Assembly (NCBI GenBank): GCA_037189585.1
Contig: JBBCJA010000025.1
Span: 22,080 to 86,079, forward strand
Reading direction: 5' to 3'
Length of the DNA: 64,000 bases
From: Selenomonadaceae bacterium
Lineage (GTDB): Bacteria > Vulcanimicrobiota > Xenobia > Xenobiales > JADMJV01
Of this stretch, positions 3,415 through 37,962 are shown piece after piece. The notes below the pieces were generated by a model. The model was not told the origin of the DNA and did no database searches. It worked only from the letters and a program-made list of their open reading frames with translations. The position numbers and the translations under genes were made by a program. Every line of letters starts with the position of its first letter. The stretch's first letter is position 1.

Positions 3415-4431
3415 TCAATAGCTGGTGTCGTCGAGTTTGACTTTACCGCGAAAGACCCAATAGACCACCGCCGAGTAAGAGAGCACGAAGGGGAGTCCCA
3501 AGAAGGCGATGACACGCATCAGTTTGAGCGTTTCTTGGGAGGAAGCCGCGTTATAGATGGTCAGGTTATAGGCCGGGTTCAGACTGGAGACCATCATGTT
3601 GGGGTAGAGCGCGGCTCCGAAAAGCGCTGTCAAGGACAAGATCGCCGCGCCGCTCGACAAAAATGCCTCGCCGGGACGCTCGATGTAAAGGGCCCTGGGG
3701 ATATTAGCGAGTGCCAAAATACTAACCAGCACGGCTAGCCAGGCCGGCCCCGGATGGCGAAAAGGCTCCACCGCGTGGGGGATACTGACCAAAGTGATGA
3801 TGGTGGCCATCAAGTAGAGCACCAGAAAGCTCCCGAACGATTTCCACATCAAGGGGCGGAGTCGCTTCTGCAGCTCCCCCTCGGTCTTCAAGGTGAGATA
3901 CACGCTGCCGTGCAGGGCGAACAGCGCGACCACCAAAGCGCCTACCAGTAGAGGGTAGAAGCCCAGCAGGTGTCCTAGATGACCCTGGTACTCATGATCG
4001 GCTCCGATGGGGAGACCCACCATGGAGTTGCCCACCGCGACTCCAAAAAGAAACGAGGCCATGGTGCAGCTGGCGAAGAAAGAGAAATCCCAAAACTTTC
4101 GCCATGGGACACTTTTGACCTTACTGCGAAACTCCATCGAAACCGCGCGAAAGATCAAGCAGATCAAAAGCAGCATGAAGGGCAGGTAGAAAGCCGAGAA
4201 CGAGGTGGCGTACACCTCGGGAAAGGCAGCGAAGAGCGCACCTCCGAAGGTGACCAGCCAGACCTCGTTCCCGTCCCAGATCGGCCCGATGGAGTTCATG
4301 AAGATGCGGCGCTCCTTGTCCGTCTTCGCCGTGTAAAAGACGATACCGACTCCCAGGTCGAATCCGTCGAGGAAAGCGTATCCGGCCAACAGGATGCCGA
4401 TCAAGATAAACCAGAAGACTTCAAGTTCCAT
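3415..4431 (-). CDS. cydB: cytochrome bd ubiquinol oxidase subunit II
   Basis: N-terminal MELEVFWFILIGILLAGYAFLDGFDLGVG is the CydB hallmark. The protein is polytopic and lies directly downstream of cydA. Confidence 0.85.
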   Translation of the reverse strand: MELEVFWFILIGILLAGYAFLDGFDLGVGIVFYTAKTDKERRIFMNSIGPIWDGNEVWLVTFGGALFAAFPEVYATSFSAFYLPFMLLLICLIFRAVSMEFRSKVKSVPWRKFWDFSFFASCTMASFLFGVAVGNSMVGLPIGADHEYQGHLGHLLGFYPLLVGALVVALFALHGSVYLTLKTEGELQKRLRPLMWKSFGSFLVLYLMATIITLVSIPHAVEPFRHPGPAWLAVLVSILALANIPRALYIERPGEAFLSSGAAILSLTALFGAALYPNMMVSSLNPAYNLTIYNAASSQETLKLMRVIAFLGLPFVLSYSAVVYWVFRGKVKLDDTSY

Positions 4432-4434
4432 CGA

Positions 4435-5859
4435 TTAGGAGTCCTCCATCAGGTCGTGGCTCGGGTCCACCTCTTGCCCGGCGGCGTCGGCCAGTCCCTC
4501 CAGCTCGCTTTGGCCTTCAGGACGTGGAGGTGGAAGCTGGGGTCCGTGCTGGATCTTCTCGTTCATCACGAAAACCCAAACCCCGAACAAGAGCAAGTAG
4601 ACGATCCCGAACATGATGATCGAGATCAAGACTTCGTGGGCTTGGACAGAGCGAGAGAGTCCCTCACTTGTTCTCAGGAGCTTGTAGACGATCCAAGGCT
4701 GCCTACCGGCCTCTGCCACGACCCAGCCGGCTTGATTCGCCACATAGGCGGGGACGACTGAGAGAACGCACAGCTTGAGAAGCCAGGGATGTCGCTCCGG
4801 ATCGGAGCGCCAGAGAGCTAACCCCGCCATCGCCGAGACCGCGATGAAGAAGAGGCCGCAACCCACCATCACACGATAGGCCCAAAACGTTATCAGCACA
4901 TTCGGGCGTTCATCTTTGGGGGTTTGGTCTAAGCCGGGGACGGGTTTGTTGGGGTCTAGGTAGAGTAAAAGACTCAGTAGCTTCGGAATTTCAATACCGT
5001 AGTGGACCTTCTCGGCGTTTTGATCCGGCCAGCCGACCAGGTACATGCCGGTCCCACCTGTACCCGTCTGGAAGTGTCCTTCCATCGCCGCCATCTTGGT
5101 CGGCTGTTCGCGAGCCACCATCTTGGCGTTGGAGTCACCCGAGAGCCCCATCGCCACCGATGACCCCAGCGCCAGGACAAGAGCGACCTTGAACATCACA
5201 CGCGCCTCGGGCAGATAGCGCTTCTTCAGCAGGTACCATGAGGCGATGGAGAGGGCGAAGAAGCCACCCAGAATGAAGCAGCCGAGCCAGACATGCACCA
5301 AACGGTCGGGAGCCGAGGGGTTAAAAACCATAGCCCAAAAGTCGACGATCTCGGCCCTAGTTTTTCCGTTGTGCTCGACCAGGTGAAAGCCGGCGGGCGT
5401 CTGCATCCAGCTGTTGGCGATCACGATCCAGACAGAAGAGAAGAAGCCTCCCAGGCAGACCATGCAGGTGGCGAAGTAATGAAATTTTGGGGAAACTTTA
5501 TTCCAGCCGAAAACCACCACTCCCAGGAATCCCGACTCTAAGAAGAAGGCAAAAATCCCCTCCGCCGCCAGCGCCGACCCGAAGACGTCCCCCACGAAGC
5601 GTGAATAGGTGGCCCAGTTAGTCCCGAACTGAAACTCCATCACGATCCCGGTCGCGACCCCCATGGCGAAGTTGACCGCGAAAAGCCGGGTCCAGTAATA
5701 CGCCACCTTCTCATAAACCGGGTTTCCGGTCTTGAGCCACATGCCTTCCATCATCACCATCAAGACCCCGAGACCAATGGTCAGCGGAGGAAAGAGATAG
5801 TGGAACATGATGGTCAGTGCGAACTGAAGTCGAGAAAGGATCAAAAGTTCGGTATCCAT
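4435..5859 (-). CDS. cydA: cytochrome bd ubiquinol oxidase subunit I
   Basis: [31 protein letters not shown] and the Q-loop region; 474 aa; 3-nt gap to cydB. Confidence 0.85.
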
Positions 5860-7797: not shown

Positions 7798-7921
7798 GGC
7801 TGACTTCGTGGACGTGTGTCCACCGAAGCGTGGTGATATATCCAGCTTTCAGTGGGTACACCCTTCCCCAGAGTCGCGTATCCACACTTTAGAATCAGCG
7901 ACACATGCCGATGAAGCGTCC

Positions 7922-9095: not shown

Positions 9096-10286
9096 CTACA
9101 GTTTTCCTAGACTTTTCACCAGGCGCGGTTTGACCGCTTCGTGGAAATCCAAGAGCGTCCGCGTGGCCGAGGGCCAGAGTTTGCTGTCCCAGCCTCGACG
9201 TAAGGGAAAGTATTTCAGCCCGACATCCTTGGCGGTCAGTCGAGAGACCATCTCTTGCCATGGTCCGAGCGCCGGTTGTTGGTAGACCAGGTGAGGAATA
9301 CCGCCGGCGCCGAGTCGCTGCCCCACAGTTTCCCCCACGTTCTCGCTAACAGGTAAAAATTCTACAGGACAGCCGTAGTGCTGGCTCAAGCGTTGAGTGG
9401 TGTCGGCCAGAGCCGCTTCCACAAAAGCCTGGACCTTGGGGCTAAAGACCACATTCTTATCGAGATTCTCAAATCCGGTCATCAAAACGACCCGGGGCTT
9501 TAGAGTTCCGGCGGCTGAGGCTTCAGGACTGAGGTCGTCGGGGGTCACCAACAAAGCATAGCTCTCACCCAAAGCTCCGCTCGGTTCGCTCGGAAGCTCT
9601 TGGAAGCGCGGTCCCGGGATGGCGGGACCGGTGAGAGCTACAGGCGACTCGTTAAGATGGCCGGTCAGGTCATAGCGGCCTTCGCTCCACTTCGAGATTT
9701 CGGCGGCCTTGGCTACGTAGGGTTTCGGAGTCAGATGAAGTCCCGCTACCCAGCGCCAAAGCAAAACCTGGGAGGCGGGGTCGGCGTCGATCAGGTGCGA
9801 GGCGAAGTGAGCCGCACCCAGCGTCCAGGGCAACCGAAGAGTGAAGATCCAGATGGAGGCATACCACAGCCGAGCTTGCTGAGGCAGCCATCCTGTCTGA
9901 AGCATCTCTTGATTCCATTCGTCGAAGGCCAGAAGACCCGTTCTTCCCTCCAACGCTGTCGCCAGTGACTGCGTTCCGTTAAAACGGCGCCGGTCATCGT
10001 CGCAGGTCCGAAGATAAGCCAGATAGACCTGAGGTCGGCCTTCGGACCAGCCGCGCCAATAGCTGCGTGCGCACAGGTCCTTGAGGTTGTTCTCGATGAC
10101 GGCTGGCCTGTGGCGTGAGAAAAGTGAAGTGGCCGCCTCGGCTTCGTGGATCAGACGATATCGAAAGGCGGCCGACAGCCCGCTCGACTCCAAGGACAAC
10201 CCCTTCCCTGGCTTAACCAAAGCATCAACGATACCGGTCCAATACTCCAGGGCCGCGACTCGTGAATGGAGCAAAGAGCTAGTCAT
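9096..10286 (-). CDS. photolyase/cryptochrome FAD-binding-domain-like protein lacking the N-terminal α/β domain
   Basis: GRTGLLAFDEWNQEMLQTGWLPQQARLWYASIWIFTLRLPWTLGAAHFASHLIDADPASQVLLWRWVAGLHLTPKPYV aligns with the photolyase GWMHNRxRMxxASF...WxxGxxxFxxxLIDxDxAxNxxxWQWxAgtG...PYF block. The C-terminal ~180 aa are unrelated to known domains. Confidence 0.5.
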   Translation of the reverse strand: MTSSLLHSRVAALEYWTGIVDALVKPGKGLSLESSGLSAAFRYRLIHEAEAATSLFSRHRPAVIENNLKDLCARSYWRGWSEGRPQVYLAYLRTCDDDRRRFNGTQSLATALEGRTGLLAFDEWNQEMLQTGWLPQQARLWYASIWIFTLRLPWTLGAAHFASHLIDADPASQVLLWRWVAGLHLTPKPYVAKAAEISKWSEGRYDLTGHLNESPVALTGPAIPGPRFQELPSEPSGALGESYALLVTPDDLSPEASAAGTLKPRVVLMTGFENLDKNVVFSPKVQAFVEAALADTTQRLSQHYGCPVEFLPVSENVGETVGQRLGAGGIPHLVYQQPALGPWQEMVSRLTAKDVGLKYFPLRRGWDSKLWPSATRTLLDFHEAVKPRLVKSLGKL

Positions 10287-10596
10287 CGGGATGGCGCTCG
10301 GGGAGAAGATCTCCCTTGCGAAGTGCTCGCAGCCGGTTGAAAGCTCGCTCGACTCGCTCCGCCTTCTCTCGCAGGCGAAGCCCGCGTCGGCGTTCCCAAG
10401 GCTGAGTTTTGGTCTCGGCGTGAAGTTCCTCGATAGCCTGGCGAGCGCTCTTCACGGCGTCTTCCAGGAGCTCTCGCTCCAACTGGTTCTCAAGCTCATG
10501 GGCTTGTGCCCAAAGCGACTTGAGCTCGTGCCCCTCGGCATCGGCCTTGGGAGACACGGCCTTACGCTTTTTGCTTGCTTTCTTTACTAACGCCAT
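10279..10596 (-). CDS. small charged coiled-coil protein
   Basis: K/R/E-rich 105–110 aa ORF overlapping the start of the photolyase-like gene by 8 nt (operon). Confidence 0.35.
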   Translation of the reverse strand: MALVKKASKKRKAVSPKADAEGHELKSLWAQAHELENQLERELLEDAVKSARQAIEELHAETKTQPWERRRGLRLREKAERVERAFNRLRALRKGDLLPERHPDD

Positions 10597-10997
10597 TTCA
10601 CTCACCCTCAAGCGACTCGTCCGCCTCTACGCGCCGCTCGCGAAGGAGGCTCCTGAGCGCGTGAGGCGACATGAGAACCTTTCCTTCGACAGCGAGCTTC
10701 CAGCAGGCCCATAAGTCCGGCGTAGAGCGCGAGAATCGCTAGAATTTTTAGTATCAGGGCTAAGCCCATAGTCTGACTCGAATCTCTCTTTCGCCCCCAA
10801 TTCGTGTATGGTGAGCGCCCGGGGGTACGACGCTGTTCACAGGTCCCCCTCTTTGAGGATAAGGCCTTGTAAGCACGGAACACTTTAGCCTTGGAGACGG
10901 CTCATTCAAACTCCCGCAGCTAGGATCACCGCGCGATTTGCAGAAATTTAACATCCCGGGGAATAGGCGAACTCGGGCGGCGACGAGAGGGGGTATC

Positions 10998-12041
10998 ATG
11001 AAAGTCTGTCTAGTTCTCACCCATCAGTGCAATCTGGCCTGCTCCTACTGTTACGCGGGCGAGAAGTTCAATCGTCACATGGACGAACGAACCGCCATGG
11101 AGGGCCTCAAGATGCTCCTTTCAGATAGCGGCCCGATGGAGCTGAGCTTTTTCGGAGGAGAGCCGTTTCTTCGCTTCGCGCTGATGGCCAAGGTCTGCCG
11201 ATGGGCCCGCGGGGGTGCCGAACGCTCGGGTCGCCAGCTAAGCTTTCAGGTCACCACCAATGCCACCATCCTGGAAGACAAGCAGCTCCGCTTCCTTAAG
11301 GAATATCAGGTCTGGACGGCGTTGTCCCTCGACGGCCCCGATAATGTTCAAGACGTGGCTCGTCCCTTTGTCAACGGGAGAGGCTCGGGGAAGCTGGTCT
11401 GGCGTAACGTGGAGAAGGCGCTGGAAACACTTGAGCGCGTCCACATCCTGATGGTGGTGACTCCCACCACCATAACCTCGCTGCTTCCCGCCGTGGAACG
11501 CCTGTATCGAGCTGGTGCCAGCCGAATTTCGCTGCTACCCGACCTGGAGGCGGACTGGAGCACGGTCGAAGGCGAAGCGCAAGCGATCTGGGCTCAACTG
11601 GCCCGAATTTCCCTGCTCTCGATGTGCACGGACCAGCCTCTCTATCTGGCTCCTTTCTCCTCCTACTTTCCCGCCAACGAGGTGTATCCCGCCGAGGGCC
11701 AGGGCCAGTGCGACTTTGGAGGACGCCAGGTCACCATCGCTCCCTCCGGCAACCTCTACCCTTGCGCGCGGCTGGTCGGTACCGACCGTCGTCCCGAGGT
11801 GCGCATCGGACATGTCAAAATGGGTTGGGAAAAAAGCAAGGCCGAGGCTCTCAAGCAGGCCGGTGACGAAGGTCTTCGCCAGGGCGGCTGCGGCAAAGGA
11901 GGTTGTCAATGCATCCCCCTGATGCCCGGCGACACAAAGGTCCAGCTCGACCATAGCGCTCGCTTCGCCCACTGGACCCGCGACGCCGCGCTACCGGTAT
12001 CCCGAGAGATCGAGGAAGCCCTCGGGGTATTGGCGCTATGA
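10998..12041 (+). CDS. radical SAM/SPASM-domain enzyme (anSME-like peptide/protein maturase)
   Basis: CNLACSYC (CxxxCxxC) at the N-terminus. C-terminal Cys clusters GQCDFGG...YPCARLVG and GGCGKGGCQC match a SPASM auxiliary-cluster domain. RBS GAGGGGG precedes ATG 10998. Confidence 0.8.
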   Translation: MKVCLVLTHQCNLACSYCYAGEKFNRHMDERTAMEGLKMLLSDSGPMELSFFGGEPFLRFALMAKVCRWARGGAERSGRQLSFQVTTNATILEDKQLRFLKEYQVWTALSLDGPDNVQDVARPFVNGRGSGKLVWRNVEKALETLERVHILMVVTPTTITSLLPAVERLYRAGASRISLLPDLEADWSTVEGEAQAIWAQLARISLLSMCTDQPLYLAPFSSYFPANEVYPAEGQGQCDFGGRQVTIAPSGNLYPCARLVGTDRRPEVRIGHVKMGWEKSKAEALKQAGDEGLRQGGCGKGGCQCIPLMPGDTKVQLDHSARFAHWTRDAALPVSREIEEALGVLAL

Positions 12042-12382
12042 GTGACGGTCAAAGAACACGAAGGAGATTTCTAGCGGACCTCCTCTTTCTCGGCGGTGCC
12101 CTGAGCGCGGGGGCCTTTCTGACTCAGACCGAGGCTCAAGCTCCCGGGACGACTCCAACGCCAGCCTCCACCCCTGTGACGCCGCCGACAAACCCTCCCG
12201 TGGTGCGTGGCCAGTATGTCGCCTCACCCTCACCGGACGGAGACGTGGCCGTGCCTCAAGCCTCCTCGACCTGCGCACCGGTGGTGAAAGGTGAGCCCCA
12301 GCCCCCCACTCCTCCAGAGAGTTTCGAGAGTCAACCTAAAGAAGTTCCGCTGGCCGGCTCGCCTAGTCCGCCAAGAAAATAG
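12038..12382 (+). CDS. small Pro/Thr-rich protein with a twin-arginine signal; candidate rSAM substrate
   Basis: ATGA overlap with the rSAM stop. The N-terminus TRRRFLADLLFLGGALSAGAFLTQTEAQA/P is a Tat motif with an h-region and AxA site. There is a single Cys in STCAPVV. Confidence 0.55.
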   Translation: MSDGQRTRRRFLADLLFLGGALSAGAFLTQTEAQAPGTTPTPASTPVTPPTNPPVVRGQYVASPSPDGDVAVPQASSTCAPVVKGEPQPPTPPESFESQPKEVPLAGSPSPPRK

Positions 12383-12392
12383 GAGATCACAG

Positions 12393-12803
12393 ATGGAGAA
12401 TTCCACTTCTAAAAAGAGTCGCCGGAGGTTTTTGGCCGACCTGCTCTTTGTGGGCGGTGGCCTGACCGCGGCCGCGGTACTGGCTAAGACGACTCTGCTA
12501 GAGGAGATCACACCGACGCCTCCGGTGGCGGCGGGAGAGATGGTGGCGCCTCCGCCACTTGAGGCGACTCCGGCGGCCTACCAAACACCAGAGCCGGAGA
12601 TTGCGAAAAAATGCATCGAGCCTCCCGTCGACCGGCGAAAAATACGAGATCCCATGCAGCCTCCTCCACCCGGTGCTGTGGTCGCTCCCGCGAAGCCCAA
12701 TCCTCAAGTCCACAAGCCAAAACCTGAACCTCAACCTTACACGCACGAGCTTCCTCCAGGCATCATGGGAGAAGTGCGTCTTAAGCGAATCGACACACCC
12801 TAG
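12393..12803 (+). CDS. paralogous small Pro-rich protein with a twin-arginine signal; candidate rSAM substrate
   Basis: AGGAG RBS lies 7 nt before ATG 12393. The leader SRRRFLADLLFVGGGLTAAAVLA is near-identical to that of the upstream gene. The core is divergent and Pro-rich with a single Cys (KKCIEPPV). Confidence 0.55.
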   Translation: MENSTSKKSRRRFLADLLFVGGGLTAAAVLAKTTLLEEITPTPPVAAGEMVAPPPLEATPAAYQTPEPEIAKKCIEPPVDRRKIRDPMQPPPPGAVVAPAKPNPQVHKPKPEPQPYTHELPPGIMGEVRLKRIDTP

Positions 12804-12954: not shown

Positions 12955-13611
12955 ATGAACATCTCGAGCGCTAGCCACGCATTGCCTACTTATCTTCGAC
13001 CCGCCAGCGCGCAAACCGCGCCGGGAGTGTCACCGGGCTCTCCCAAAGAAAGCATCTTGACGCGCCTCGGCGAAATGACGGTAGACACCGCCTTTTTTGC
13101 CGCCAATGAGATCGCCGAACTGGGCAAAAACGATCCCGCTCTAGCCATGCGATATGGCGCGACCACCATCAGTGAGAAACTTTTGGAAGGCACCGGCGAC
13201 AACGTCCGTCCCGCCTTCAATCAAGCCATCATCCCCACCATCCGCTTGGCCATCCTGGGAGCCAATATCTATCGGGCGAACGAAACTTTCAAAGACCCCG
13301 GCTCCAACTTGGTCGAGAAAGGTCTGGATGTGGCTCGCGTGGCAACCGACCTGGCGGGTCTGGCTGGAAGCGTGATGCAGTTTGTCCTCCCCGCTCAGGC
13401 TGCTCTGGGTGACACGCTGGTCGGCGTCTCCTACGCCGCCGACTCGGTCAGTCACTCCATTCGTGGCGTCCTCCATGGGGCCGACCGAGTCAAAGTTTGG
13501 AAGAAACAGTTGGCCGAAAAGAAAGCGGCCAAAGCCAAGGCCGAAACTCCCATCACCCCACCGCCCGCCGTGTCGGCGCCAGTGATCAACTCTCCCCTAC
13601 TCGCGACTTAA
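12955..13611 (+). CDS. hypothetical protein
   Basis: 218-aa ORF downstream of the rSAM cluster with an Ala/Lys/Pro-rich C-terminus and no recognised motifs. Confidence 0.4.
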   Translation: MNISSASHALPTYLRPASAQTAPGVSPGSPKESILTRLGEMTVDTAFFAANEIAELGKNDPALAMRYGATTISEKLLEGTGDNVRPAFNQAIIPTIRLAILGANIYRANETFKDPGSNLVEKGLDVARVATDLAGLAGSVMQFVLPAQAALGDTLVGVSYAADSVSHSIRGVLHGADRVKVWKKQLAEKKAAKAKAETPITPPPAVSAPVINSPLLAT

Positions 13612-13621
13612 ACACGCCAGT

Positions 13622-14398
13622 CTAGACCACCGGCATCGTTCCTCCGTCCACGACCAGCTCCGCGCCATAGATGTTTCGTGCATCTTCAGAGGCCAGAAAG
13701 AGCACCGCACCGGCGACATCCTCAGGCGCTCCAGGTAGGCCGCGCGGAATCCCTCCGAGACCGGAGACAAGGTTCCTCCTTGCCGCCTCCCTATCGGTTC
13801 CCGACTCTTTCGCGAGTCTGTCTATCAAGCGACTCGCTGCTTCCGTCTCTATAAAACCCGGGGCCAGGGAGTTCACTCGGACTCCCTTCGGAGCGACTTC
13901 GTTGGCCAACCCTTTGCTGTAGGTCGTCAAGGCCGCTTTCGCCGCGGCATATCCTAAGGTCGACTCATACAGAGGGAAACGGCGCTGTATCGAACTGATA
14001 TGGATTACAACACCGCCATTCGCGGCGAGCATGGATGGAAGAAAGACTCGGTCGAGTCTCACCGCGGCAAGAAGGTTCAGATTCAACTCGTCCCGCCAGT
14101 GCTGCTCCGATAAAGCCGCGAACCCGCCGCCCGGAGAACTCGATCCTCCGACGCAGTTGACCAGGATACTGATCCGGCCGAAGCGCTCTTTCACTTGTCT
14201 TGCCAGCGTTTCAACCCCTTCTGGAGTGGATAAGTCAGCCGTGAAATGATGGCCCGGATGGTCCGCATCCGCTTCTCTCCGAGCGCAAGTGATCACGGTC
14301 GCTCCTTCTTCGGCAAAGCGTCTGGCAATCGCCAAGCCCATCCCCTGGGTACCACCGGTGACAAGCACAATGGCCTCTTGAAATTCTTGATATCGCAT
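13622..14398 (-). CDS. SDR-family oxidoreductase
   Basis: TGGTQGMGLAIA Rossmann motif, NNAG and a YxxxK active-site pattern. Confidence 0.8.
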   Translation of the reverse strand: MRYQEFQEAIVLVTGGTQGMGLAIARRFAEEGATVITCARREADADHPGHHFTADLSTPEGVETLARQVKERFGRISILVNCVGGSSSPGGGFAALSEQHWRDELNLNLLAAVRLDRVFLPSMLAANGGVVIHISSIQRRFPLYESTLGYAAAKAALTTYSKGLANEVAPKGVRVNSLAPGFIETEAASRLIDRLAKESGTDREAARRNLVSGLGGIPRGLPGAPEDVAGAVLFLASEDARNIYGAELVVDGGTMPVV

Positions 14399-14492
14399 GT
14401 TTGGCTCTCCTTACGTCTAATCGAGAGCGAGCGGCCACTGCTCGAGCCAAGCATAGAGGCCGGTTTCGGAAAGTGGAAGAGCCGACGAGAAA

Positions 14493-14840
14493 GTGGGGTA
14501 CGAACTTTTGAGTAAGAAACAAGAATGGACGAGGGAAACTGGTGCCTCCGGAGTGGTCGAGGCCCTCAGCTATCTCGACGGCCGGTGGAAGCTCTCGATT
14601 CTTTTCCAGCTCTTTGGCGGACGCATTCTTCGTTTCTCCGAACTCGAGAAGGCAATCCCCGGAATCTCCCAAAAAATGCTGATCCAACAACTCAGAAGAC
14701 TCGAAGCCGACGGTCTCGTTCTCCGCGAGGTCTTCCCTGAAGTTCCGCCGCGCGTGGAGTATCGACTCACCCCCTGGGGGCAAGCTCTCTGCCCGGTTCT
14801 CGACCACCTTTTGTCCTGGGCGGCGGAAAAAGAGCCTTAA
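14493..14840 (+). CDS. HxlR-family transcriptional regulator
   Basis: LxxLxGRWKLxILxxLxxGxxRFxEL...PxxSQKMLxQxLRxLExDGLVxRxVxPxVPPRVEYxLT signature; divergent from the SDR gene. Confidence 0.75.
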   Translation: MGYELLSKKQEWTRETGASGVVEALSYLDGRWKLSILFQLFGGRILRFSELEKAIPGISQKMLIQQLRRLEADGLVLREVFPEVPPRVEYRLTPWGQALCPVLDHLLSWAAEKEP

Positions 14841-14887
14841 TGTCGAAGGTCGCGGATGGCTTCTTCCAACCCCTGATGCACCAGTTA
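14840..14887 (-). pseudogene. 15-codon 3' remnant of a VWA (CoxE-like) gene paralogue
   Basis: The minus-strand reading ...VHQGLEEAIRDLRH* is identical over 10 aa to the C-terminus of the 17414..18589 gene. DNA differences are synonymous in that frame, and an in-frame stop lies 15 codons upstream. Confidence 0.35.
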
Positions 14888-15103
14888 CTACATGACGCGC
14901 CTGGAGAGCTGTCCTTGCTCGAGCAATGCGACACCAGGTTTTACGGCCATCTCTCGCGCTCCCTCGAGAAGTTGGAGAAGCAAACTTTTTTGGTCGAGCT
15001 GTCGATCCGAGAGCGACCCAATCGACTACGTCATGAAAGAGTCAAGAAGAGCCCCCGGTCCTTCGCAGATCACATCAATCATCCGTTCAAGGAGTCTTCC
15101 AAT

Positions 15104-15538
15104 ATGAAACGCCAAATCTTCGTCAACATCGCCGTCACGGACCTGGCCAAGTCGAGAGCCTTCTTCTCCAGCCTGGGCTTCAGCTTCAACGAGCAGTTCT
15201 GCGACGACACCGCCGCCTGCCTGGTCATATCCGAGGAGATCCACGCCATGCTACTGACCCACGACAAGATGAAGGGCTTCTTGCCCAAAGGCCACGAGAT
15301 CGCCGGTCCCAAGACGCATGAGGCGCTGGTCTGTCTGTCGTGCGAAAGCCGAGAAGAGGTCGACCGTCTGGTGGACAAAGCCATCACCGAGGGCGGCAGG
15401 ACCTTTAGCGAGCCGCAGGACTATGGATTCATGTACTACCGCAGCTTCCAGGACCTCGACGGCCACATCTGGGAGATGGCGCACATGGATATGAGCAAGA
15501 TACCTAGCGAAGAGCCCACGAAGGCCGGAAAAGCCTAG
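15104..15538 (+). CDS. VOC/glyoxalase-family protein
   Basis: MKRQIFVNIAVTDLAKSRAFF...YRSFQDLDGHIWE glyoxalase/bleomycin-resistance fold motifs. AAGGAG RBS before ATG 15104. Confidence 0.65.
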   Translation: MKRQIFVNIAVTDLAKSRAFFSSLGFSFNEQFCDDTAACLVISEEIHAMLLTHDKMKGFLPKGHEIAGPKTHEALVCLSCESREEVDRLVDKAITEGGRTFSEPQDYGFMYYRSFQDLDGHIWEMAHMDMSKIPSEEPTKAGKA

Positions 15539-15565
15539 TGCTCCCTCACCATGGAGGTCCTCCTC

Positions 15566-16000
15566 CTACGCACTACTCTTAGGTACGAGCACGAGCACCG
15601 GAATCTCTCGCTGGCCGGCCGCCGCCTTCTCGTAGTCTTTGAAGAACGGCATGATTTCGGACTGCTGGTCGTAGAGGCGTCGTCGCTCGGCCCCTGAGGC
15701 TTGCTCGGCTCGCACGGCGATCGTCTCGCTTCCTACCTCGATCTCGGTCTCAGGGTGGGCGACGAGGTTGTGGTACCAATCCGGGTTGGTAGGCGCTCCA
15801 CCCTTCGAGCCGATGATCACGAAGCGGTCGCCGTCTTCGCTGTAGACCAGAGGATTGACGCGAGTCTTGCCACTTTTGGCGCCTTTATGATGCAGTAGGA
15901 GAACGGGCATCCCCTCGAATCGGCCTCCTACCTTTCCGCCGTTAGCGCGAAATTCTTCGAGAACCTGGGCATTCTGAGCGTCGAGCGCGGCTTTATCCAT
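15566..16000 (-). CDS. deazaflavin-dependent nitroreductase-family protein (DUF385)
   Basis: PVLLLHHKGAKSGKTRVNPLVYSEDGDRFVIIGSKGGAPTNPDWYHNLVAHPE matches the DUF385 core. Confidence 0.65.
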   Translation of the reverse strand: MDKAALDAQNAQVLEEFRANGGKVGGRFEGMPVLLLHHKGAKSGKTRVNPLVYSEDGDRFVIIGSKGGAPTNPDWYHNLVAHPETEIEVGSETIAVRAEQASGAERRRLYDQQSEIMPFFKDYEKAAAGQREIPVLVLVPKSSA

Positions 16001-16033
16001 GGTTTGTCTCCTGTTCTATATCCAAGGTCGAAA

Positions 16034-16783
16034 TCACCATCCGCCGCTGGCGGTGACGATCTCGCCGGTGACCCATCCTGCGTCGTCTGAGGCCAGGAAG
16101 GCCGCGACCTTGGCGATGTCCTCGGGCTTCCCCACCCGGCCAAGGGGAACCTGGGAGACGAGCTGGTCGAGAAAGCCGTCGGGCATGTCCACTCCGGCCG
16201 AACGGGTGCCCTCCGTGTCGGTGTAGCCAGGATTGACCGAGTTGACCCGGATTTTCCGAGGCGCAAGCTCTCTGGCCAGCAGTGGGGTGATGGAGTCGAC
16301 GGCGGCCTTGGTCGCGCAATATACGGTGCTTCCAGGCAGACGCAGTCTGGTCACGTTGGACCCGATGTTGATGATGGCGGACCCCGGGCCCATGCGTTCG
16401 ACCGCCGCCTGCGTGGTCAGCAGCAAGCCCAACACGTTGAGGTCGAACAGCCGGTGGAACACCTCGGAGCTGAATTGCTCGAGGAAGCCGTTCTCGAAGA
16501 CCCCGGCGTTGTTGACCAGGATGTCCAGGCGACCAAAGGCTTTGACTGTCGACTCCACCAGCGAGCGGACGTGCTGTGCTTGCGAGACGTCGGCCTGGAT
16601 CGCCACCGCCTCTCCTCCCCGCTCGATGATATCCGCGACCACGGTATCGGCATCGCTCCGGCTGCTGGCGTAGTTAATCACGACTCGGGCGCCTTCGGAT
16701 GCGAGCTCCGCGGCAATGCCGGCTCCAATCCCCTTGGAGGAGCCGGTTACTATCGCGACCTTTCCTCGCAATTTTTTCGACAT
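16034..16783 (-). CDS. SDR-family oxidoreductase
   Basis: GKVAIVTGSSKGIGAGIA, NNAG and a YxxxK pattern. Confidence 0.8.
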   Translation of the reverse strand: MSKKLRGKVAIVTGSSKGIGAGIAAELASEGARVVINYASSRSDADTVVADIIERGGEAVAIQADVSQAQHVRSLVESTVKAFGRLDILVNNAGVFENGFLEQFSSEVFHRLFDLNVLGLLLTTQAAVERMGPGSAIINIGSNVTRLRLPGSTVYCATKAAVDSITPLLARELAPRKIRVNSVNPGYTDTEGTRSAGVDMPDGFLDQLVSQVPLGRVGKPEDIAKVAAFLASDDAGWVTGEIVTASGGW

Positions 16784-16916
16784 AACAGTTCTCCTGTGTG
16801 GCTCTCTAGTTTTTGACCATACGGTGCACTATTCTTGTAAGTGAGTTCGGAAATGATATCAAGTACGGATTTGAAAGTAACTCACTTACTCGGAGGTAAG
16901 GAAAGGGGCGGTGATC

Positions 16917-17312
16917 ATGAGGCAAAGTTGTGCCGGCGTGGGCGGAAAAGACAAGCTTGAGGAACAGCGGGTTTGTCCGATCCGTTATGCTCTCAAGAGG
17001 GTGGGTGACCAGTGGAGCATGCTGGTCCTGTATTGCCTGACAACGGGCACCATGCGGTTCGGAGAGATGCAGAAACAGATCGGAACGATCTCGGCGCGCG
17101 TGCTGACGCAAACGCTGCGCAACCTCGAGCAAGATGGACTGCTGACGCGGAAGGCTTATCCCACTATTCCGCCGCGAGTGGAATACACGTTGACCGACCT
17201 CGGGCGGTCTCTGGCAAGTTCTCTGGACTCCCTCTTTGTCTGGGCCGAAGAGAACTACGAGCGCGTCCGGGAGGCCCAGGCAAGCTATCGCAAGACGGAG
17301 GTCTCGCAGTAA
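16917..17312 (+). CDS. HxlR-family transcriptional regulator
   Basis: HxlR signature including IPPRVEYTLTDLG. It is a paralogue of 14493..14840 and is likewise divergent from an SDR gene. Confidence 0.75.
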   Translation: MRQSCAGVGGKDKLEEQRVCPIRYALKRVGDQWSMLVLYCLTTGTMRFGEMQKQIGTISARVLTQTLRNLEQDGLLTRKAYPTIPPRVEYTLTDLGRSLASSLDSLFVWAEENYERVREAQASYRKTEVSQ

Positions 17313-31842: not shown

Positions 31843-33837
31843 ATGCGTACTCTCGCCTTCTCCTTACTCACCGTTGTGATTCTGCAAGTCGCGGCCTTGG
31901 CCGAGCCTTCGCCCATCGAGGAGGCAGGCCAGACCAACCTCTTCCTAGACCGTGACACCGCTCAGGTCCACGTTCTGGTGCGACCCCAAGAGCGTCTGGT
32001 CTTAGCCTTTCCTGCCGATAATTCGGGGCACGGTCTGTGGTTTGACGGCGATCTTGTAGTCCAACCGGAGAGCCTCAAGGAGCTCCCCACACCAGGACAG
32101 GGTCAGCGCATCCAACTTCAACTCCAGGTGCGCCAACCCACCGTTGTCCGAAAGGTCTTGATGGACAGTCTCCGGGTGCTGCGTGATCAAGGCGAGGGTG
32201 ACGGCGCTTTGGCGGAAAGAGTGGAAGCTGCTCGGTTGAAAGCTCACGGAGAGCCGTCACGCATGAGTCTGTCACGCCACCAGCAGGGGGTCAACTACAC
32301 ACGCCGGCAGGCGGGCCTACCGTCGGGGGCTCCGGAATTCTCGCTGACTCTTACCCCAGCGCGGCTCGAAAGTGATGGAAAGGTCACCCTTCTCCCCGGG
32401 GAGGTGACGCTGGAGGCGACTCTCCCCTTTGCTCCGATGAGTCGCTTTCTTCCTCAGGAGCTCTATCGTTCGGACTACCTTACCTCCACGAATTCCGATT
32501 CGCCTCGAGTGACAAGCTCCAAGCAAGCCCTGGAGTTTTTAACTCGACGAGAGAAGATGATGGCCGGCTCCTGGCGCTTTCTCACCTACTTCGGACGAGA
32601 CACCCTGATCTCGACGGCCATGCTGGAGCCGATCTTAAGTGATCAGGCCTTGCTCGCGTCACTCCAAAGTGTGCTCGACCGCCTCTCTCCCGAAGGAGCC
32701 GTCGCTCATGAAGAAGACATCGGCCCGTTCGCGGAGTGGCGCAACCTGGAGGCCGGGAGTTCCGGACTCGACCCGGTCTACGACTACAAGATGATCGACG
32801 ACGATTTCCTGTTGCCGCTGCTGTTAGCCAAGTTGAACGAGTCCGGCCATAGCGATCTTCTGAAGACTCTGTTGAGCCAACCCAAGACCCGAGAACTCAT
32901 CCTTCGCAACGCCGATTTCGCCCGAGATAAGCTCGCCAAGCACGATCTGGTCCGCCTGCTTCCTGGCGAAGTCACCGGCGACTGGAGGGACTCTCACGAA
33001 GGTCTGGGCGACGGGGTTTATCCGGCCAGCGTGAACTCCGATCTAGCTCCCCCCACCCTGCGAGCTTTGGAGACGATCGAGGATCGACTGCCCATGCCCA
33101 GACCCGGCGTGAAAAAACAGCTTCAACAGCTTCAAAAGGAGTGGAAGAAGCGCTCGGACAGCTTCTGGGTAGAGCTCTCCCCAGCTCAAGTCAAGTCCCG
33201 GCTGGAGGCTTTCGCCGGCTCGCTTTCGCCCGCCCAAAAAGCCGGCTTCGAGAAACTGGTTTCCGAACACTCGGACCTTCTCGAGGAGCCGCTCCGTTTT
33301 CCCGCTCTTTCCCTCGACGACAAGCAACAGCCGGTGGAGGTGGTCCACAGCGATGTCGCCTTCACCCTTTTTTACGGACATCCTGACCAGAAACAGCTGG
33401 GAGACATCCTCACCCTGCTGGAGCGCCCCTTTCCCTACGGGCTCAAGACTCCGGCGGGCTATCTGGTGGCCAACCCGATCTTCTCCAGCAATCCCAGACA
33501 CTATCAAAGTCTCGGTTTCGGGCAGTATCACGGCCTGGTGGTCTGGTCCTGGCCCCAGGCCATGCTCAGCCTCGGGCTGCTACGCCAGCACGGGCGGTTC
33601 CCTCAGCTCGACGAAAAAATCGCGCGCCTGGCCCGGGAGATTCGCGATGGCGAGGAGCGGGTCGGGCCCCTTGCCACCTCGGAGCTGTGGGCCATCGACC
33701 TCGACGAGAGCGGCCTCACCTGGCGGGCCTACGGAGTGGCCGGCGACCAGACCGAGTCCAACGCCCTCCAACTCTGGTCCACCGTCTACCCGGCGCTAGA
33801 GTACGCGCGCCAACGCTCTCCCATCTGGAGAAATTAG
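31843..33837 (+). CDS. secreted large protein, possibly an (α/α)6-barrel glycoside-hydrolase-like enzyme
   Basis: Signal peptide. GFGQYHGLVVWSWPQA and neighbouring acidic motifs resemble GH15/GH63/GDE-type catalytic barrels. This is not a firm assignment. Confidence 0.35.
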   Translation: MRTLAFSLLTVVILQVAALAEPSPIEEAGQTNLFLDRDTAQVHVLVRPQERLVLAFPADNSGHGLWFDGDLVVQPESLKELPTPGQGQRIQLQLQVRQPTVVRKVLMDSLRVLRDQGEGDGALAERVEAARLKAHGEPSRMSLSRHQQGVNYTRRQAGLPSGAPEFSLTLTPARLESDGKVTLLPGEVTLEATLPFAPMSRFLPQELYRSDYLTSTNSDSPRVTSSKQALEFLTRREKMMAGSWRFLTYFGRDTLISTAMLEPILSDQALLASLQSVLDRLSPEGAVAHEEDIGPFAEWRNLEAGSSGLDPVYDYKMIDDDFLLPLLLAKLNESGHSDLLKTLLSQPKTRELILRNADFARDKLAKHDLVRLLPGEVTGDWRDSHEGLGDGVYPASVNSDLAPPTLRALETIEDRLPMPRPGVKKQLQQLQKEWKKRSDSFWVELSPAQVKSRLEAFAGSLSPAQKAGFEKLVSEHSDLLEEPLRFPALSLDDKQQPVEVVHSDVAFTLFYGHPDQKQLGDILTLLERPFPYGLKTPAGYLVANPIFSSNPRHYQSLGFGQYHGLVVWSWPQAMLSLGLLRQHGRFPQLDEKIARLAREIRDGEERVGPLATSELWAIDLDESGLTWRAYGVAGDQTESNALQLWSTVYPALEYARQRSPIWRN

Positions 33838-34418
33838 AGCTCGCGAGTCCAAAACTCCATGCTCTTCTCGCTCTCTTCCGTCTCGCCCAGATCGGGCCAG
33901 GAGTAGGTGGTGAGGAGATCGGGGCGGCGCTGGTAGCCTCGGCGGGTCCAGAAGCCGTCCAGCGGCCGGTAGTCTTGCGGTCGAAGAGGATGGTCCTGAG
34001 GACGCAAGACGCGGCAGAAGCAGCTGAAGCGATAACCCAGATCCTTCGCCTCGGTCTCACGCCGGTCGAAAAAGCGATGGCCGGCGCCCTGCCCCCGATA
34101 GGCGGGCAGCAAAATCGACTCTCCGAAGTAGTAATACTCCTGGACAGGCAGTCCCGCGCTCTCGAAGGGGCGACGGAACTCCGCTCCCTCGTCCTGCAGC
34201 GGCAGCGCGGTGGAGGCACCCACCACAGCGCCATGGTCGCGCGCCATCACCAGAAAACTCGAGGAGCTGGCGGGAAGAATCCTGAGATACTCGCGCTCAT
34301 ACTCCATCGTTCCCTCATACAGATAAGGAAACTCTCGGAAGACCCGGATCCGTAGACCGGCCAGGTCCTCGAGTTGAGAGGCGATCTCCTCACCCCGGTA
34401 GATTTGATACTCGATCAT
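33834..34418 (-). CDS. GNAT-family N-acetyltransferase
   Basis: PAYRGQGAGHRFF acetyl-CoA-binding motif. Confidence 0.6.
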   Translation of the reverse strand: MIEYQIYRGEEIASQLEDLAGLRIRVFREFPYLYEGTMEYEREYLRILPASSSSFLVMARDHGAVVGASTALPLQDEGAEFRRPFESAGLPVQEYYYFGESILLPAYRGQGAGHRFFDRRETEAKDLGYRFSCFCRVLRPQDHPLRPQDYRPLDGFWTRRGYQRRPDLLTTYSWPDLGETEESEKSMEFWTREL

Positions 34419-36001
34419 AACTCCTCTGGGAGAACGCCGTGGCCGGCACCTTCCGGCTCAGGCTCGGTGAGATAGGGAGCCAGAAGCATGACCACGGCGA
34501 CCCCTAAATATCCCCACACCCATGGCCCGGCGAAGGCGAGTTTGACGACCACGTCGCCCGGTGTGATCTGGTAGGAATGCATCAATCCCACCGAGGAGAG
34601 AGCGGCTCCCGCCAAAGCCCACAACGCCGCCTTGCGAAACTCCCGCTCGATGATGGCGACCGTCAAAGCCGCCCACAAGATAGAGGTGAAGATGAATCCC
34701 TGCTCCAGGGCGAACCCTCCGACCATGTAGAGGTCCGAGGCTTGGAACTTCGCGATCAGATCCTCGCTAAAGGGCGGGCCGGGCGGTCCCATTCCGGCCG
34801 CTCGCAAGCCGCCCTTAGCCATCAACACTCCCCAGGCGGCGAGGCCCGGAAGCAGCCCGACGACGACCGCCGGAGCGTGCTTGGTGGGTGTGGCCTGAAA
34901 GGCCTGAGCGGCGATGATGAGGCCGATCCAGATGACGATCGCCATCCCCGCTTCCACCGGCACCGCCCAGGCCAGAAGACCCAGGGTTCCGGTGATGCAA
35001 ACCAAAGCCATGAAAAGGCCGTTGAGAATGGAGTAGCCGGCTCTTGAACCGAGGGCCTTCCATCCTGGGTGACCGATGTAGATGGTGGTGGGAAAACAGG
35101 ATCCAAAAAACGCCGCAGCGATGGTCCCGATGCCGTTGACGGCAAGAGAAGGCGCGGTGGGATAGCTGTCGCCGGCGGCCTCGGCCGACTCGATGTTCTG
35201 CAGCGAGCCGACCACGTTGAAGAGACCCATCGGTAAGATGACGGAGATATAGCTGACCAGGCTACCGGCGGCAACTCCGGCCACCAGGTCCCCAAGCCAG
35301 GGTTGAGGCAGCGCGATGCCCGCCCAGGCTGGTTGGTCCCCCACCGGAGCCAGTCCGGTGGCCCAGGCGACCGCCGTCCCGACAGCCACCGCCACCATTC
35401 CGCCCGGAACGCCCCCCTTGAACCTCACTCCTCCAAAGAAGACCAACAAGACGATGGCCAGGGTGAGAAAGCCGACTAAAGGATGGGCGAAGGTGCGAAA
35501 GAGAAAGCCGAGAGAGATAAATCCCAGAGCGATCCCGGCAAGGGTGGAGAGAAGCGCCGCTCTCGGGGTCGATCGTCGTAACGGCTCGGCCAGAAAAGCG
35601 CCCACTAGCTCGATCACTCCCGAGCCCAGACAGGCCACCAAGCCCGCCTGCCAGGCCACCAGCGCAGGGTCTGGCGCGCCCGCGGCTTGAGCCGCGAACT
35701 TGGCCGGCAGCATGACTAAAAAAATGTGGGCGAAAAGCGAAACGGTGTTGATCCCGTAAGGCAAGGCGCAGATGTCGGTCCGCCCGGTCTTCTCCATCAA
35801 CTGGCGAGCTTGCCAGGCGTAAAAGAAGTTTCCAATGATAAGTGAGATGGCCACGCCGGGTAAGATTCGGCCGCTCACCATCTCCTCGGGAAATCCCAGC
35901 ACGAACCGGCACAGCGCGTCTATCAGAAGAAGCTGTACGAAGTTATCCAGAGCTAAGGCGAAGAAGCCGTCGACATCTCCGCGAACGAACCACCCCCGCA
36001 T
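34415..36001 (-). CDS. NCS2-family nucleobase permease (AzgA/GhxP-like)
   Basis: 528 aa with ~13 TM helices. N-terminal FxLxxxGTxVRTEIxAGLTTF-like segment and Gly-rich TM motifs. Confidence 0.7.
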   Translation of the reverse strand: MRGWFVRGDVDGFFALALDNFVQLLLIDALCRFVLGFPEEMVSGRILPGVAISLIIGNFFYAWQARQLMEKTGRTDICALPYGINTVSLFAHIFLVMLPAKFAAQAAGAPDPALVAWQAGLVACLGSGVIELVGAFLAEPLRRSTPRAALLSTLAGIALGFISLGFLFRTFAHPLVGFLTLAIVLLVFFGGVRFKGGVPGGMVAVAVGTAVAWATGLAPVGDQPAWAGIALPQPWLGDLVAGVAAGSLVSYISVILPMGLFNVVGSLQNIESAEAAGDSYPTAPSLAVNGIGTIAAAFFGSCFPTTIYIGHPGWKALGSRAGYSILNGLFMALVCITGTLGLLAWAVPVEAGMAIVIWIGLIIAAQAFQATPTKHAPAVVVGLLPGLAAWGVLMAKGGLRAAGMGPPGPPFSEDLIAKFQASDLYMVGGFALEQGFIFTSILWAALTVAIIEREFRKAALWALAGAALSSVGLMHSYQITPGDVVVKLAFAGPWVWGYLGVAVVMLLAPYLTEPEPEGAGHGVLPEEL

Positions 36002-37804: not shown

Positions 37805-37962
37805 GGCGGGCGTTTTGCCGTCGAGTGAGGCCCCCCCTCTTTGACACCCGATGATAAGACGTGGGCCTCATCCAAGTCGAATTTGGTGATCAAGATTACT
37901 GAACAGTCTAGGACATGTTTCCTATATTGAAACCCACATCTCGATCCAGGAGCGTGAACTGC

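Follow-up and report, generated by a model that had tools for sequence, protein, structure and literature searches.

Does the radical S-adenosylmethionine (rSAM) enzyme encoded in a Vulcanimicrobiota genome modify the small proteins whose genes lie directly behind its own? The question is raised by a 64,000-nucleotide stretch of contig JBBCJA010000025.1 (hereafter the window), in which an rSAM gene is followed by two tandem small open reading frames (ORFs), sORF-A and sORF-B. The first-pass annotation had read this arrangement as a maturase-substrate system focused on the single cysteine of each small protein. In our analysis, the pair is probably an uncharacterized enzyme-substrate system, and we put at roughly one in two the probability that the rSAM serves in the cytoplasm as the dedicated maturase of the small proteins whose genes follow directly 3' of its own, the modification itself being predicted. 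What stands of the earlier reading is carried by conserved adjacency, stop/start overlaps, one to five paralogs per enzyme, an ultra-conserved leader, and fast-evolving tails; the focus on cysteine does not stand. The genomic features of RiPPs (peptides synthesized by ribosomes and modified after translation) were all found, namely, adjacent putative precursor genes, a conserved leader, a variable core, and several paralogs.

The pairing recurs among relatives of the enzyme. The rSAM has thousands of relatives, and those at 40–88% identity form a coherent family from assemblies labeled Eremiobacteraeota, Vulcanimicrobiota (the phylum to which class Xenobia belongs), Xenobia, and Armatimonadota, a few of which are probably mis-binned. 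Loci with rSAM identity ≥40% and downstream DNA present were considered informative (n = 12). In all 12 of these loci, one to five small ORFs with the same leader lie directly 3' of the rSAM gene (one each in L001, L003, L081, L163, and L166; two in L008, L161, L164, and L169; three in L084; four in L171; five in L002), so that the co-occurrence proposed as a check in the first-pass annotation is borne out, and this module of an rSAM gene and tandem small ORFs is kept from 88% down to ~40% rSAM identity. Tblastn detected sORF-B relatives beside rSAM homologs in L001, L002, L008, and L081, and reverse look-ups starting from three small proteins (P0136, P0174, and P0160) each led to an adjoining rSAM gene. 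Stop/start overlaps of 1–8 nt were found in the window, L161, L163, L164, L166, and L169, and one genome carries two separate modules. The flanks differ among subclades (photolyase-like and VWA/MoxR genes; Exo_endo_phos and NDH-2; FHIPEP and FliP); therefore, the conserved unit consists of the rSAM and the small ORFs. No recurring protease or transporter gene was identified in the examined module neighborhoods. The pairing of the rSAM with the small ORFs is not due to chance. A metagenome scan yielded few close relatives, most of the loci containing rSAMs of other families at 26–37% identity.

The gene layout in the window is as first described, with an ATGA overlap of the rSAM stop and the sORF-A start (12038-12041), small ORFs of 114 and 136 aa, and an AGGAG ribosome-binding site ahead of the second one. 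The rSAM start codon is the ATG at 10998, given that it corresponds to the N-terminus of 32 of the 32 aligned homologs, all of which read M-[K/R]-V-x-L-V-L-T-H, and that the Shine-Dalgarno-like GAGAGGGGG precedes it. There was no Rfam match upstream at E ≤ 1, and no plus-strand terminator-like site was found between the module genes. The near-identical leaders and single tail cysteines noted earlier are present in both small proteins: the leader core RRRFLADLLF is the same in sORF-A and sORF-B, 17 of 25 residues around this core are shared, and the tails, with one Cys each, contain 26–28% Pro. AlphaFold2 (AF2) modeling of sORF-A revealed a helix at residues 3-33, the remainder being coil.

Searches of Pfam, NCBIfam, and PHROGs assigned no family to the small proteins or their relatives, even at E ≤ 1. 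A single-sequence query with sORF-A retrieved nine homologs and a profile retrieved 170 clusters in a 90%-identity collection, along with 242 representatives (E ≤ 0.001) among 1.84 billion. The listed matches are all 69-194 aa long, and the 120 of them listed from the 90%-identity collection lack Pfam domains. The exact sORF-B sequence is absent from a 15-billion-protein collection, and sORF-A is recorded there only from a Logan assembly. By comparison, the rSAM and a 218-aa ORF downstream of the module are recorded from an NCBI record, too, besides the Logan assembly. In the deposited annotation, the small ORFs thus seem to have been missed or assigned a different start.

The leader is the most conserved part of the small proteins, with seven positions of R-R-R-F-x-A-D-x-x-F invariant among 114 aligned family members, to which the leader statistics refer, and L4, L8, G11, and G12 conserved in 94–99%. 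The N-terminal consensus, M-S-x4-RRRFLADLLFxGGxxxAAxLLA[K/Q/R][A/S/T], combines S/T/K before the arginine pair, F-L after it, 15–17 uncharged residues, and a c-region of the form A(80%)-[K/Q/R]-[A/S/T], which includes a basic residue and has small residues at -3/-1 in 98% of the members. Under heuristic rules of our own, which are not a trained predictor, the leader qualifies as a signal for twin-arginine translocation (Tat), and the family consensus thus agrees with the Tat-type leader predicted at first pass. The putative cleavage site is AQA in sORF-A and only V-L-A in sORF-B. Because its conservation goes well past the needs of export, the leader may have a second, specific reader besides the export machinery.

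The tails that follow the leader are fast-evolving, contain 26% Pro across the family, and are nearly aromatic-free and mildly acidic. Their description as hypervariable holds insofar as they are divergent, but they do not form a free core: each consists of repeats of P-x-φ-x-G-[D/E/K]-φ-x-x-P (φ, hydrophobic residue). The consensus unit is P-[P/E]-P-x-[L/V/I]-x-G-[D/E/K]-[V/M/P]-[A/V]-x-P, with two to five units per protein. Tail motifs are enriched 4- to 200-fold over composition-preserving shuffles (G.φ..P, 323 observed vs 73 ± 7; DGDφ, 42 vs 0.2; GG[K/E]P, 42 vs 1.6). The units are VRGQYVAS, PDGDVAVP, VKGEPQPP, and LAGSPSPP in sORF-A, and AAGEMVAP, PPGAVVAP, and IMGEVRLK in sORF-B. Residue conservation was scored on close ortholog pairs only, the all-pairs count being confounded by Pro-rich alignments. 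In these pairs, the best-conserved tail residues are Gly (0.84–0.91), Pro, Asp, Glu, and Lys, with Cys (0.58–0.72) in the middle of the range.

The enzyme contains the CxxxCxxC motif from which it had been recognized, with C11-x3-C15-x2-C18 invariant in the alignment of homologs, and its membership in the rSAM superfamily is evident from the match to Pfam Radical_SAM (PF04055, 63.1 bits vs cutoff 29.5); Fer4_12 was matched as well. It does not reach the cutoff of any curated NCBIfam family. The best match is the PapB-family ranthipeptide maturase (NF047865, 171.5 bits vs cutoff 340), followed by the nif11-type maturase (151 vs 519), QhpD (TIGR03906, 113.9 vs 453), the SCIFF maturase/CteB (TIGR03974, 106.6 vs 425), and the anaerobic sulfatase-maturating enzyme (anSME; TIGR03942, 62.6 vs 349). 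Comparison with these models, suggested in the first-pass annotation, thus leaves the rSAM outside the well-characterized subfamilies, and the rSAMs of the other loci behave similarly, scoring 172–214 bits with the PapB model. All top relatives in NCBIfam and the PDB act in peptide or protein maturation; most either form Cys thioethers or mature Cys-rich peptides (PapB, QhpD, CcpM, SCIFF maturase, and CteB). By sequence, the nearest solved structure is CteB (5wgg, E = 3.9e-40), aligned over its residues 99-404, and the second is TigE (E = 1.8e-17). Because the alignment begins at CteB residue 99, the rSAM lacks the N-terminal peptide-binding domain of CteB. The AF2 model (pLDDT, 88) is similar to both CteB (Foldseek TM-score, 0.75–0.76) and anSME (0.77). 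An epimerase-like assignment was rejected given the weak structural match to EpeE (0.47–0.49).

The C-terminal SPASM cysteine cluster claimed for the enzyme was upheld in part. Five invariant C-terminal cysteines are present, but the SPASM domain is truncated, with only positions 1-35 of the 67 in the Pfam model (PF13186) matched at 17 bits (cutoff 21.5), and the full SPASM pattern with two auxiliary clusters (CX9-15GX4C ... CX2CX5CX3C ... C) is absent. Compared to the enzymes of a sister clade described below, CX2CX5CX3C has lost its second and third Cys through an 8-residue deletion, and there is no distal Cys either. From the anSME structure, we take the lost cysteines to be three of the four ligands of the second auxiliary cluster (Aux II), with the ligands of the first one (Aux I) kept. 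The rSAM probably holds a single auxiliary cluster and would be twitch-like by reduction.

Could the reaction center on the substrate cysteine after all? In this alternative, the rSAM would form a Cys-dependent cross-link of the ranthipeptide/QhpD type, from Cys to a nearby Asp or Glu, or would catalyze another Cys oxidation before Tat export. The mostly thioether-forming or Cys-rich-peptide-modifying relatives of the enzyme are in accord with such chemistry. So is the distribution of Cys among the 120 family members listed out of the 170 clusters, to which the Cys statistics refer: at least one tail Cys in 88% and exactly one in 71%, more regular than a residue with a frequency of 1.4% predicts. 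About 30% of the cysteines lie six residues before the motif Gly (C-P-P-x-φ-x-G-D/E), placing an Asp/Glu acceptor at +7, and the others are scattered. C79 and E86 of sORF-A fit this pattern, at a spacing that we take to be within the ring sizes of QhpC. A Cys41-Asp49 bond is present in QhpC (PMC7876137). However, 14 of the 120 proteins (12%) have no tail Cys; in L166, the sole partner of the rSAM, P0136, is Cys-free, its ortholog P0131 carrying a Cys at the position of a P0136 Gly; and copy 1 in L084 is Cys-free, whereas copy 2 in L164 has Cys in the leader only. The CX3[DE] pattern was not found among the Cys contexts of the family (C-A-P-V-V in sORF-A and C-I-E-P-P in sORF-B), sORF-B contains no D/E motif at the right distance (KKCIEPPVDRRK), and the Aux II ligands are lost in the window clade. 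Because Cys-free partners exist, the position of Cys varies, and its conservation is mid-range, the substrate Cys, judged from the sequences, cannot be an obligatory reaction partner. The single Cys is accordingly dropped as the focal target, Cys-centered chemistry is weakened as the universal reaction, and thioether formation, a homology-based guess, fails in this role. We consider Cys-dependent cross-linking or oxidation to be an unlikely account of the system.

A maturation pathway in which Cys is dispensable can be outlined as follows. The enzyme would bind the invariant leader of the newly made small protein in the cytoplasm and would abstract a hydrogen atom within the repeated tail units, with no strict need for a substrate Cys; in proteins with a Cys six residues before the motif Gly, a Cys-Asp/Glu thioether is plausible as an additional or variant outcome. 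The product would then be released, the leader would direct export through the general Tat machinery, and signal peptidase I would trim the leader. Export by the general Tat system and cleavage by signal peptidase I would explain why the module includes no dedicated protease or transporter gene.

A sister clade of rSAMs points to a wider distribution of this architecture. These enzymes, from Myxococcota/Polyangiales, Kiritimatiellia, and other hosts, are 29–33% identical to the window enzyme and 38–55% identical among themselves, contain a full SPASM domain, and have the PapB model as their best match (200–214 bits). At least 16 of the 58 sister loci encode an adjacent protein of 94-205 aa that typically has a basic N-terminus, a conserved Y-P, and often RR-x-F-L, followed by a hydrophobic segment and a lipobox-like G-C; in its Pro-rich tail, LGG[K/E/R]P and xG[D/E]φ units occur. 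In one Polyangiales locus (L017, 6258..7484), one P-H-P-P-x-L-G-G-x-φ-x-x-P-like unit lies at the C-terminus, or close to it, in each of three tandem partner ORFs (in the third, it reads AGG and ~10 more residues follow), and the tails are otherwise not strongly Pro-rich; this hints that the unit is the minimal functional element. A far-reaching version of the maturase reading would have the leader double as rSAM recognition element and Tat signal, and the enzyme serve as a Tat proofreading chaperone that permits export only after a Cys-independent, previously unseen modification of each tail unit (epimerization or a C-C/C-O cross-link at residues flanking Gly). Along with the sister clade, the family would then define a new class of exported, proline-rich proteins modified by rSAMs in several phyla. 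We offer this version as speculative and doubtful.

Several observations weigh against maturation followed by Tat export. Neither a RiPP recognition element (RRE) nor another recognized leader-binding domain was found in the rSAM, its alignment with CteB starting only at residue 99. The invariant tail residues are Gly and Pro only, which are unusual rSAM targets, and sORF-B lacks a clean A-x-A cleavage site. No TatA-like ORF was detected in the 64-kb window, the only part of the genome that was searched. Given its hydrophobicity (Kyte-Doolittle 1.5–2.05 over 19 residues), the leader segment could serve as a membrane anchor instead of being cleaved as a signal. Among the sister-clade partners, some lack RR, so Tat export is not universal there, and profile-profile comparison (hhalign) aligns window and sister partners over 12 columns in the RR region only, at 50% probability; their relation therefore rests on architecture and motif, not on proven homology.

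The small proteins could instead be anchored or secreted envelope proteins with TonB-linker-like Pro-rich spacers, in which case the rSAM would act elsewhere, or the small proteins would be its membrane partner or regulator, and adjacency would reflect co-regulation. The hydrophobic segment exceeds the classical transmembrane threshold in 93% of the members (≥1.6), the tails are low-complexity and disordered in the AF2 model, and the contexts vary, with envelope or flagellar genes near some loci; Gly and Pro as the sole tail invariants and the missing RRE fit this alternative, too. However, co-regulation alone would have to maintain adjacency with overlapping stop and start codons across deep divergence and between unrelated flanks, and the leader is conserved far above the needs of an anchor. 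Furthermore, one to five copies per enzyme is the typical pattern of precursors, no alternative substrate gene is conserved nearby, and the relatives of the rSAM modify peptides or proteins. We regard the envelope-protein alternative as improbable, although not negligible. Least of all do we expect an anSME-like enzyme that oxidizes Cys to Cα-formylglycine before export, as in sulfatases: for all its fold being as near to anSME as to CteB and some tails containing C-x-P-x-φ-[R/K], reminiscent of C-x-P-x-R, the anSME score is far below the cutoff, the Aux II cluster of anSME is lost, the sulfatase motif is unmatched in sORF-A (C-A-P-V-V-K) and sORF-B (C-I-E-P-P), no sulfatase is found among the annotated neighbors, and Cys-free partners exist.

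Table 1. Features of the rSAM/small-ORF module and the adjacent 218-aa ORF in the window
Feature	Position	Strand	Remarks
Shine-Dalgarno-like GAGAGGGGG 5' of the rSAM start codon	10985..10993	+	read from sequence
Radical-SAM enzyme, coding sequence, 347 aa	10998..12041	+	without N-terminal RRE; truncated SPASM (probably twitch-like)
CxxxCxxC (C11, C15, C18), ligands of the radical-SAM [4Fe-4S] cluster	11028..11051	+	invariant in homolog alignment
Auxiliary-cluster region, five invariant Cys (C238, C256, C298, C303, C305)	11709..11912	+	homolog alignment
sORF-A, 114 aa, probable substrate or partner	12038..12382	+	ATG overlaps rSAM stop
sORF-A leader core RRRFLADLLF (Tat-type twin-arginine motif)	12059..12088	+	family-wide conservation
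sORF-A tail, four φ-x-G-x-φ-x-x-P units (12203-12226, 12233-12256, 12284-12307, 12350-12373)	12203..12373	+	
sORF-A single Cys, C79 in STCAPVVKGEP	12272-12274	+	
AGGAG ribosome-binding site of sORF-B	12381..12385	+	overlaps sORF-A stop, 7 nt before ATG; read from sequence
sORF-B, 136 aa, sORF-A paralog	12393..12803	+	leader core 12420-12449
sORF-B motif units	12528-12551, 12666-12689, 12762-12785	+	
sORF-B single Cys, C74 in KKCIEPPVDRR	12612-12614	+	
218-aa ORF	12955..13611	+	clade-specific neighbor; Pfam, NCBIfam, PHROGs without match

The 218-aa ORF downstream of sORF-B had been proposed as a member of the same unit. Among the loci compared with it by tblastn, a homolog was detected in L001 only; L169 and L171 have ORFs of about its size (216 and 225 aa) at the same position, and the more distant loci contain none. 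Synteny of this ORF is limited to the closest clade (L001, L169, and L171), where the whole neighborhood is syntenic, and is absent elsewhere. The proposal was therefore abandoned, and the 218-aa ORF is probably outside the core unit. No terminator-like site was found between sORF-B and this ORF. Divergently upstream of the rSAM gene (9096..10611, minus strand), a 396-aa protein whose only photolyase/cryptochrome part is FAD_binding_7 (residues 106-191) is encoded together with a 110-aa coiled-coil-like ORF, a pair that is kept in L001, L169, and L171. Between the 218-aa ORF and the VWA_CoxE/MoxR-AAA genes, a 3.8-kb block (13622..17312) encodes an SDR, HxlR, a glyoxalase, an F420H2-dependent quinone reductase, a second SDR, and a second HxlR. 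This block looks like a lineage-specific insertion because the VWA/AAA pair directly follows the homolog of the 218-aa ORF in L001 and L171.

In the subclade with 39–41% rSAM identity, the module is located between FHIPEP (FlhA-like) and FliP in two assemblies (L164, 1..13023; L173, 1..8005), and upstream of the module in L161 (4102..5676) lies a divergent FliF-like gene. A link to a flagellar/type III export cluster is possible, although inconsistent among the loci; as a general feature, a flagellar or type III secretion link was rejected, being seen neither in the window nor in most loci. In L002 (7571..8528), 3' of the five small ORFs, the near-duplicate ORF starts MSPANLAP(L/F)SLASASEASAPLSGRSPAPLSRAKRALPSRRRSRR occur at 7857 and 8008 and the peptide LPSTVYR is repeated on the other strand, which suggests that this region holds tandem DNA repeats.

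Farther away in the window, subunits I and II of cytochrome bd oxidase are encoded at 3415..5859 (minus strand); the host thus uses oxygen for respiration and at the same time encodes an rSAM system that is sensitive to it. An 816-aa protein (37915..40365, plus strand) matches the shoulder domain of the Major Vault Protein (PF11978, 83 bits) and, weakly, Vault_3, which is unusual for a bacterial contig; three large ORFs near this gene (31843..33837, 34415..36001, and 36008..37804) have no match in Pfam.

If the enzymatic pairing is true, rSAM maturation with a Tat-type signal as the substrate leader would be seen here for the first time, and the use of general secretion by RiPPs, a recently recognized theme that has involved Sec and lipoprotein signals and multinuclear non-heme iron-dependent oxidases (MNIOs) to date, would reach radical-SAM enzymes. 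The putative substrates, disordered proteins of ~100 aa with 26% Pro, no aromatic residues, a defined repeat, and a dispensable Cys, are unusual; thus, the chemistry may differ from the thioether, cyclophane, and sulfatase reactions of the nearest relatives. With its two genes, and lacking protease and exporter genes, the module is compact, and it is widespread in Vulcanimicrobiota/Eremiobacterota, with look-alikes in Myxococcota and Kiritimatiellia. To our knowledge, Vulcanimicrobiota/Eremiobacterota have almost no cultured members.

Several characterized systems share parts of this design. The anSME-sulfatase system similarly involves a cytoplasmic rSAM of comparable fold similarity that modifies a protein before export, but the window module falls short of its family cutoff, includes neither its target motif nor a sulfatase, and has lost the Aux II cluster. 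In the poly-cyclopropylglycine peptides of TvgB/TigE (PDB 8VPO), an rSAM-SPASM enzyme is reported to act on every repeat copy, with aliphatic-Gly units such as TVGG and TIGSVS (PMC9062424, PMC10878394). TigE is a much weaker relative of the window enzyme than CteB; motif, length, and composition of the substrates differ, and the TvgB/TigE precursors are not known to have a signal-like leader. With CteB (5WGG, 5WHY) and PapB, the window enzyme shares the rSAM core, a SPASM first half that includes the C...G-x4-C hairpin, and a peptide encoded next door. In contrast to CteB and PapB, it scores far below the cutoffs, has no N-terminal RRE-like domain, and lacks the Aux II ligands, and the window-type partners are Pro-rich proteins of 83-194 aa, contain zero to three Cys and neither CX3D/E nor six-Cys motifs, and have a Tat-like leader.

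The use of an export signal as leader has its closest parallel in MNIO-modified peptides. In bufferins, a Sec signal is the leader (PMC11626156), and in lipo-RiPPs such as DybA, a lipoprotein signal is the leader (PMC13056109); in both, modification takes place in the cytoplasm before export. As proposed for the window module, a general secretion signal at the N-terminus makes a dedicated protease and exporter unnecessary. The differences are that the enzyme is an rSAM, not an MNIO (DUF692), that the signal is of the Tat type, not Sec or SPII, and that the tails consist of Pro-rich repeats, whereas the cores of bufferins and lipo-RiPPs are Cys-rich and folded, or short macrocycles. Family comparison identified no MNIO enzyme in the window module, so the likeness is one of logic only. 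The literature search found no paper joining a twin-arginine leader with an rSAM-modified RiPP-type precursor. The claim of an undescribed RiPP class thus retains its Tat/rSAM part and gives way on export-signal leaders as such, which are known, albeit with MNIO enzymes and signals other than Tat (PMC11626156, PMC13056109).

For the possible working of the window system, QhpD-QhpC is the best analog. QhpD is a cytoplasmic rSAM that modifies a small, mostly random-coil, periplasm-bound protein, QhpC, which is held by its leader and encoded in the same operon (PMC7876137). QhpC contains four Cys and a Trp cofactor precursor, and it depends on the protease QhpE, the ABC exporter QhpF, and QhpG, all absent from the window module. 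In the window system, Cys is dispensable and the leader itself resembles a general export signal.

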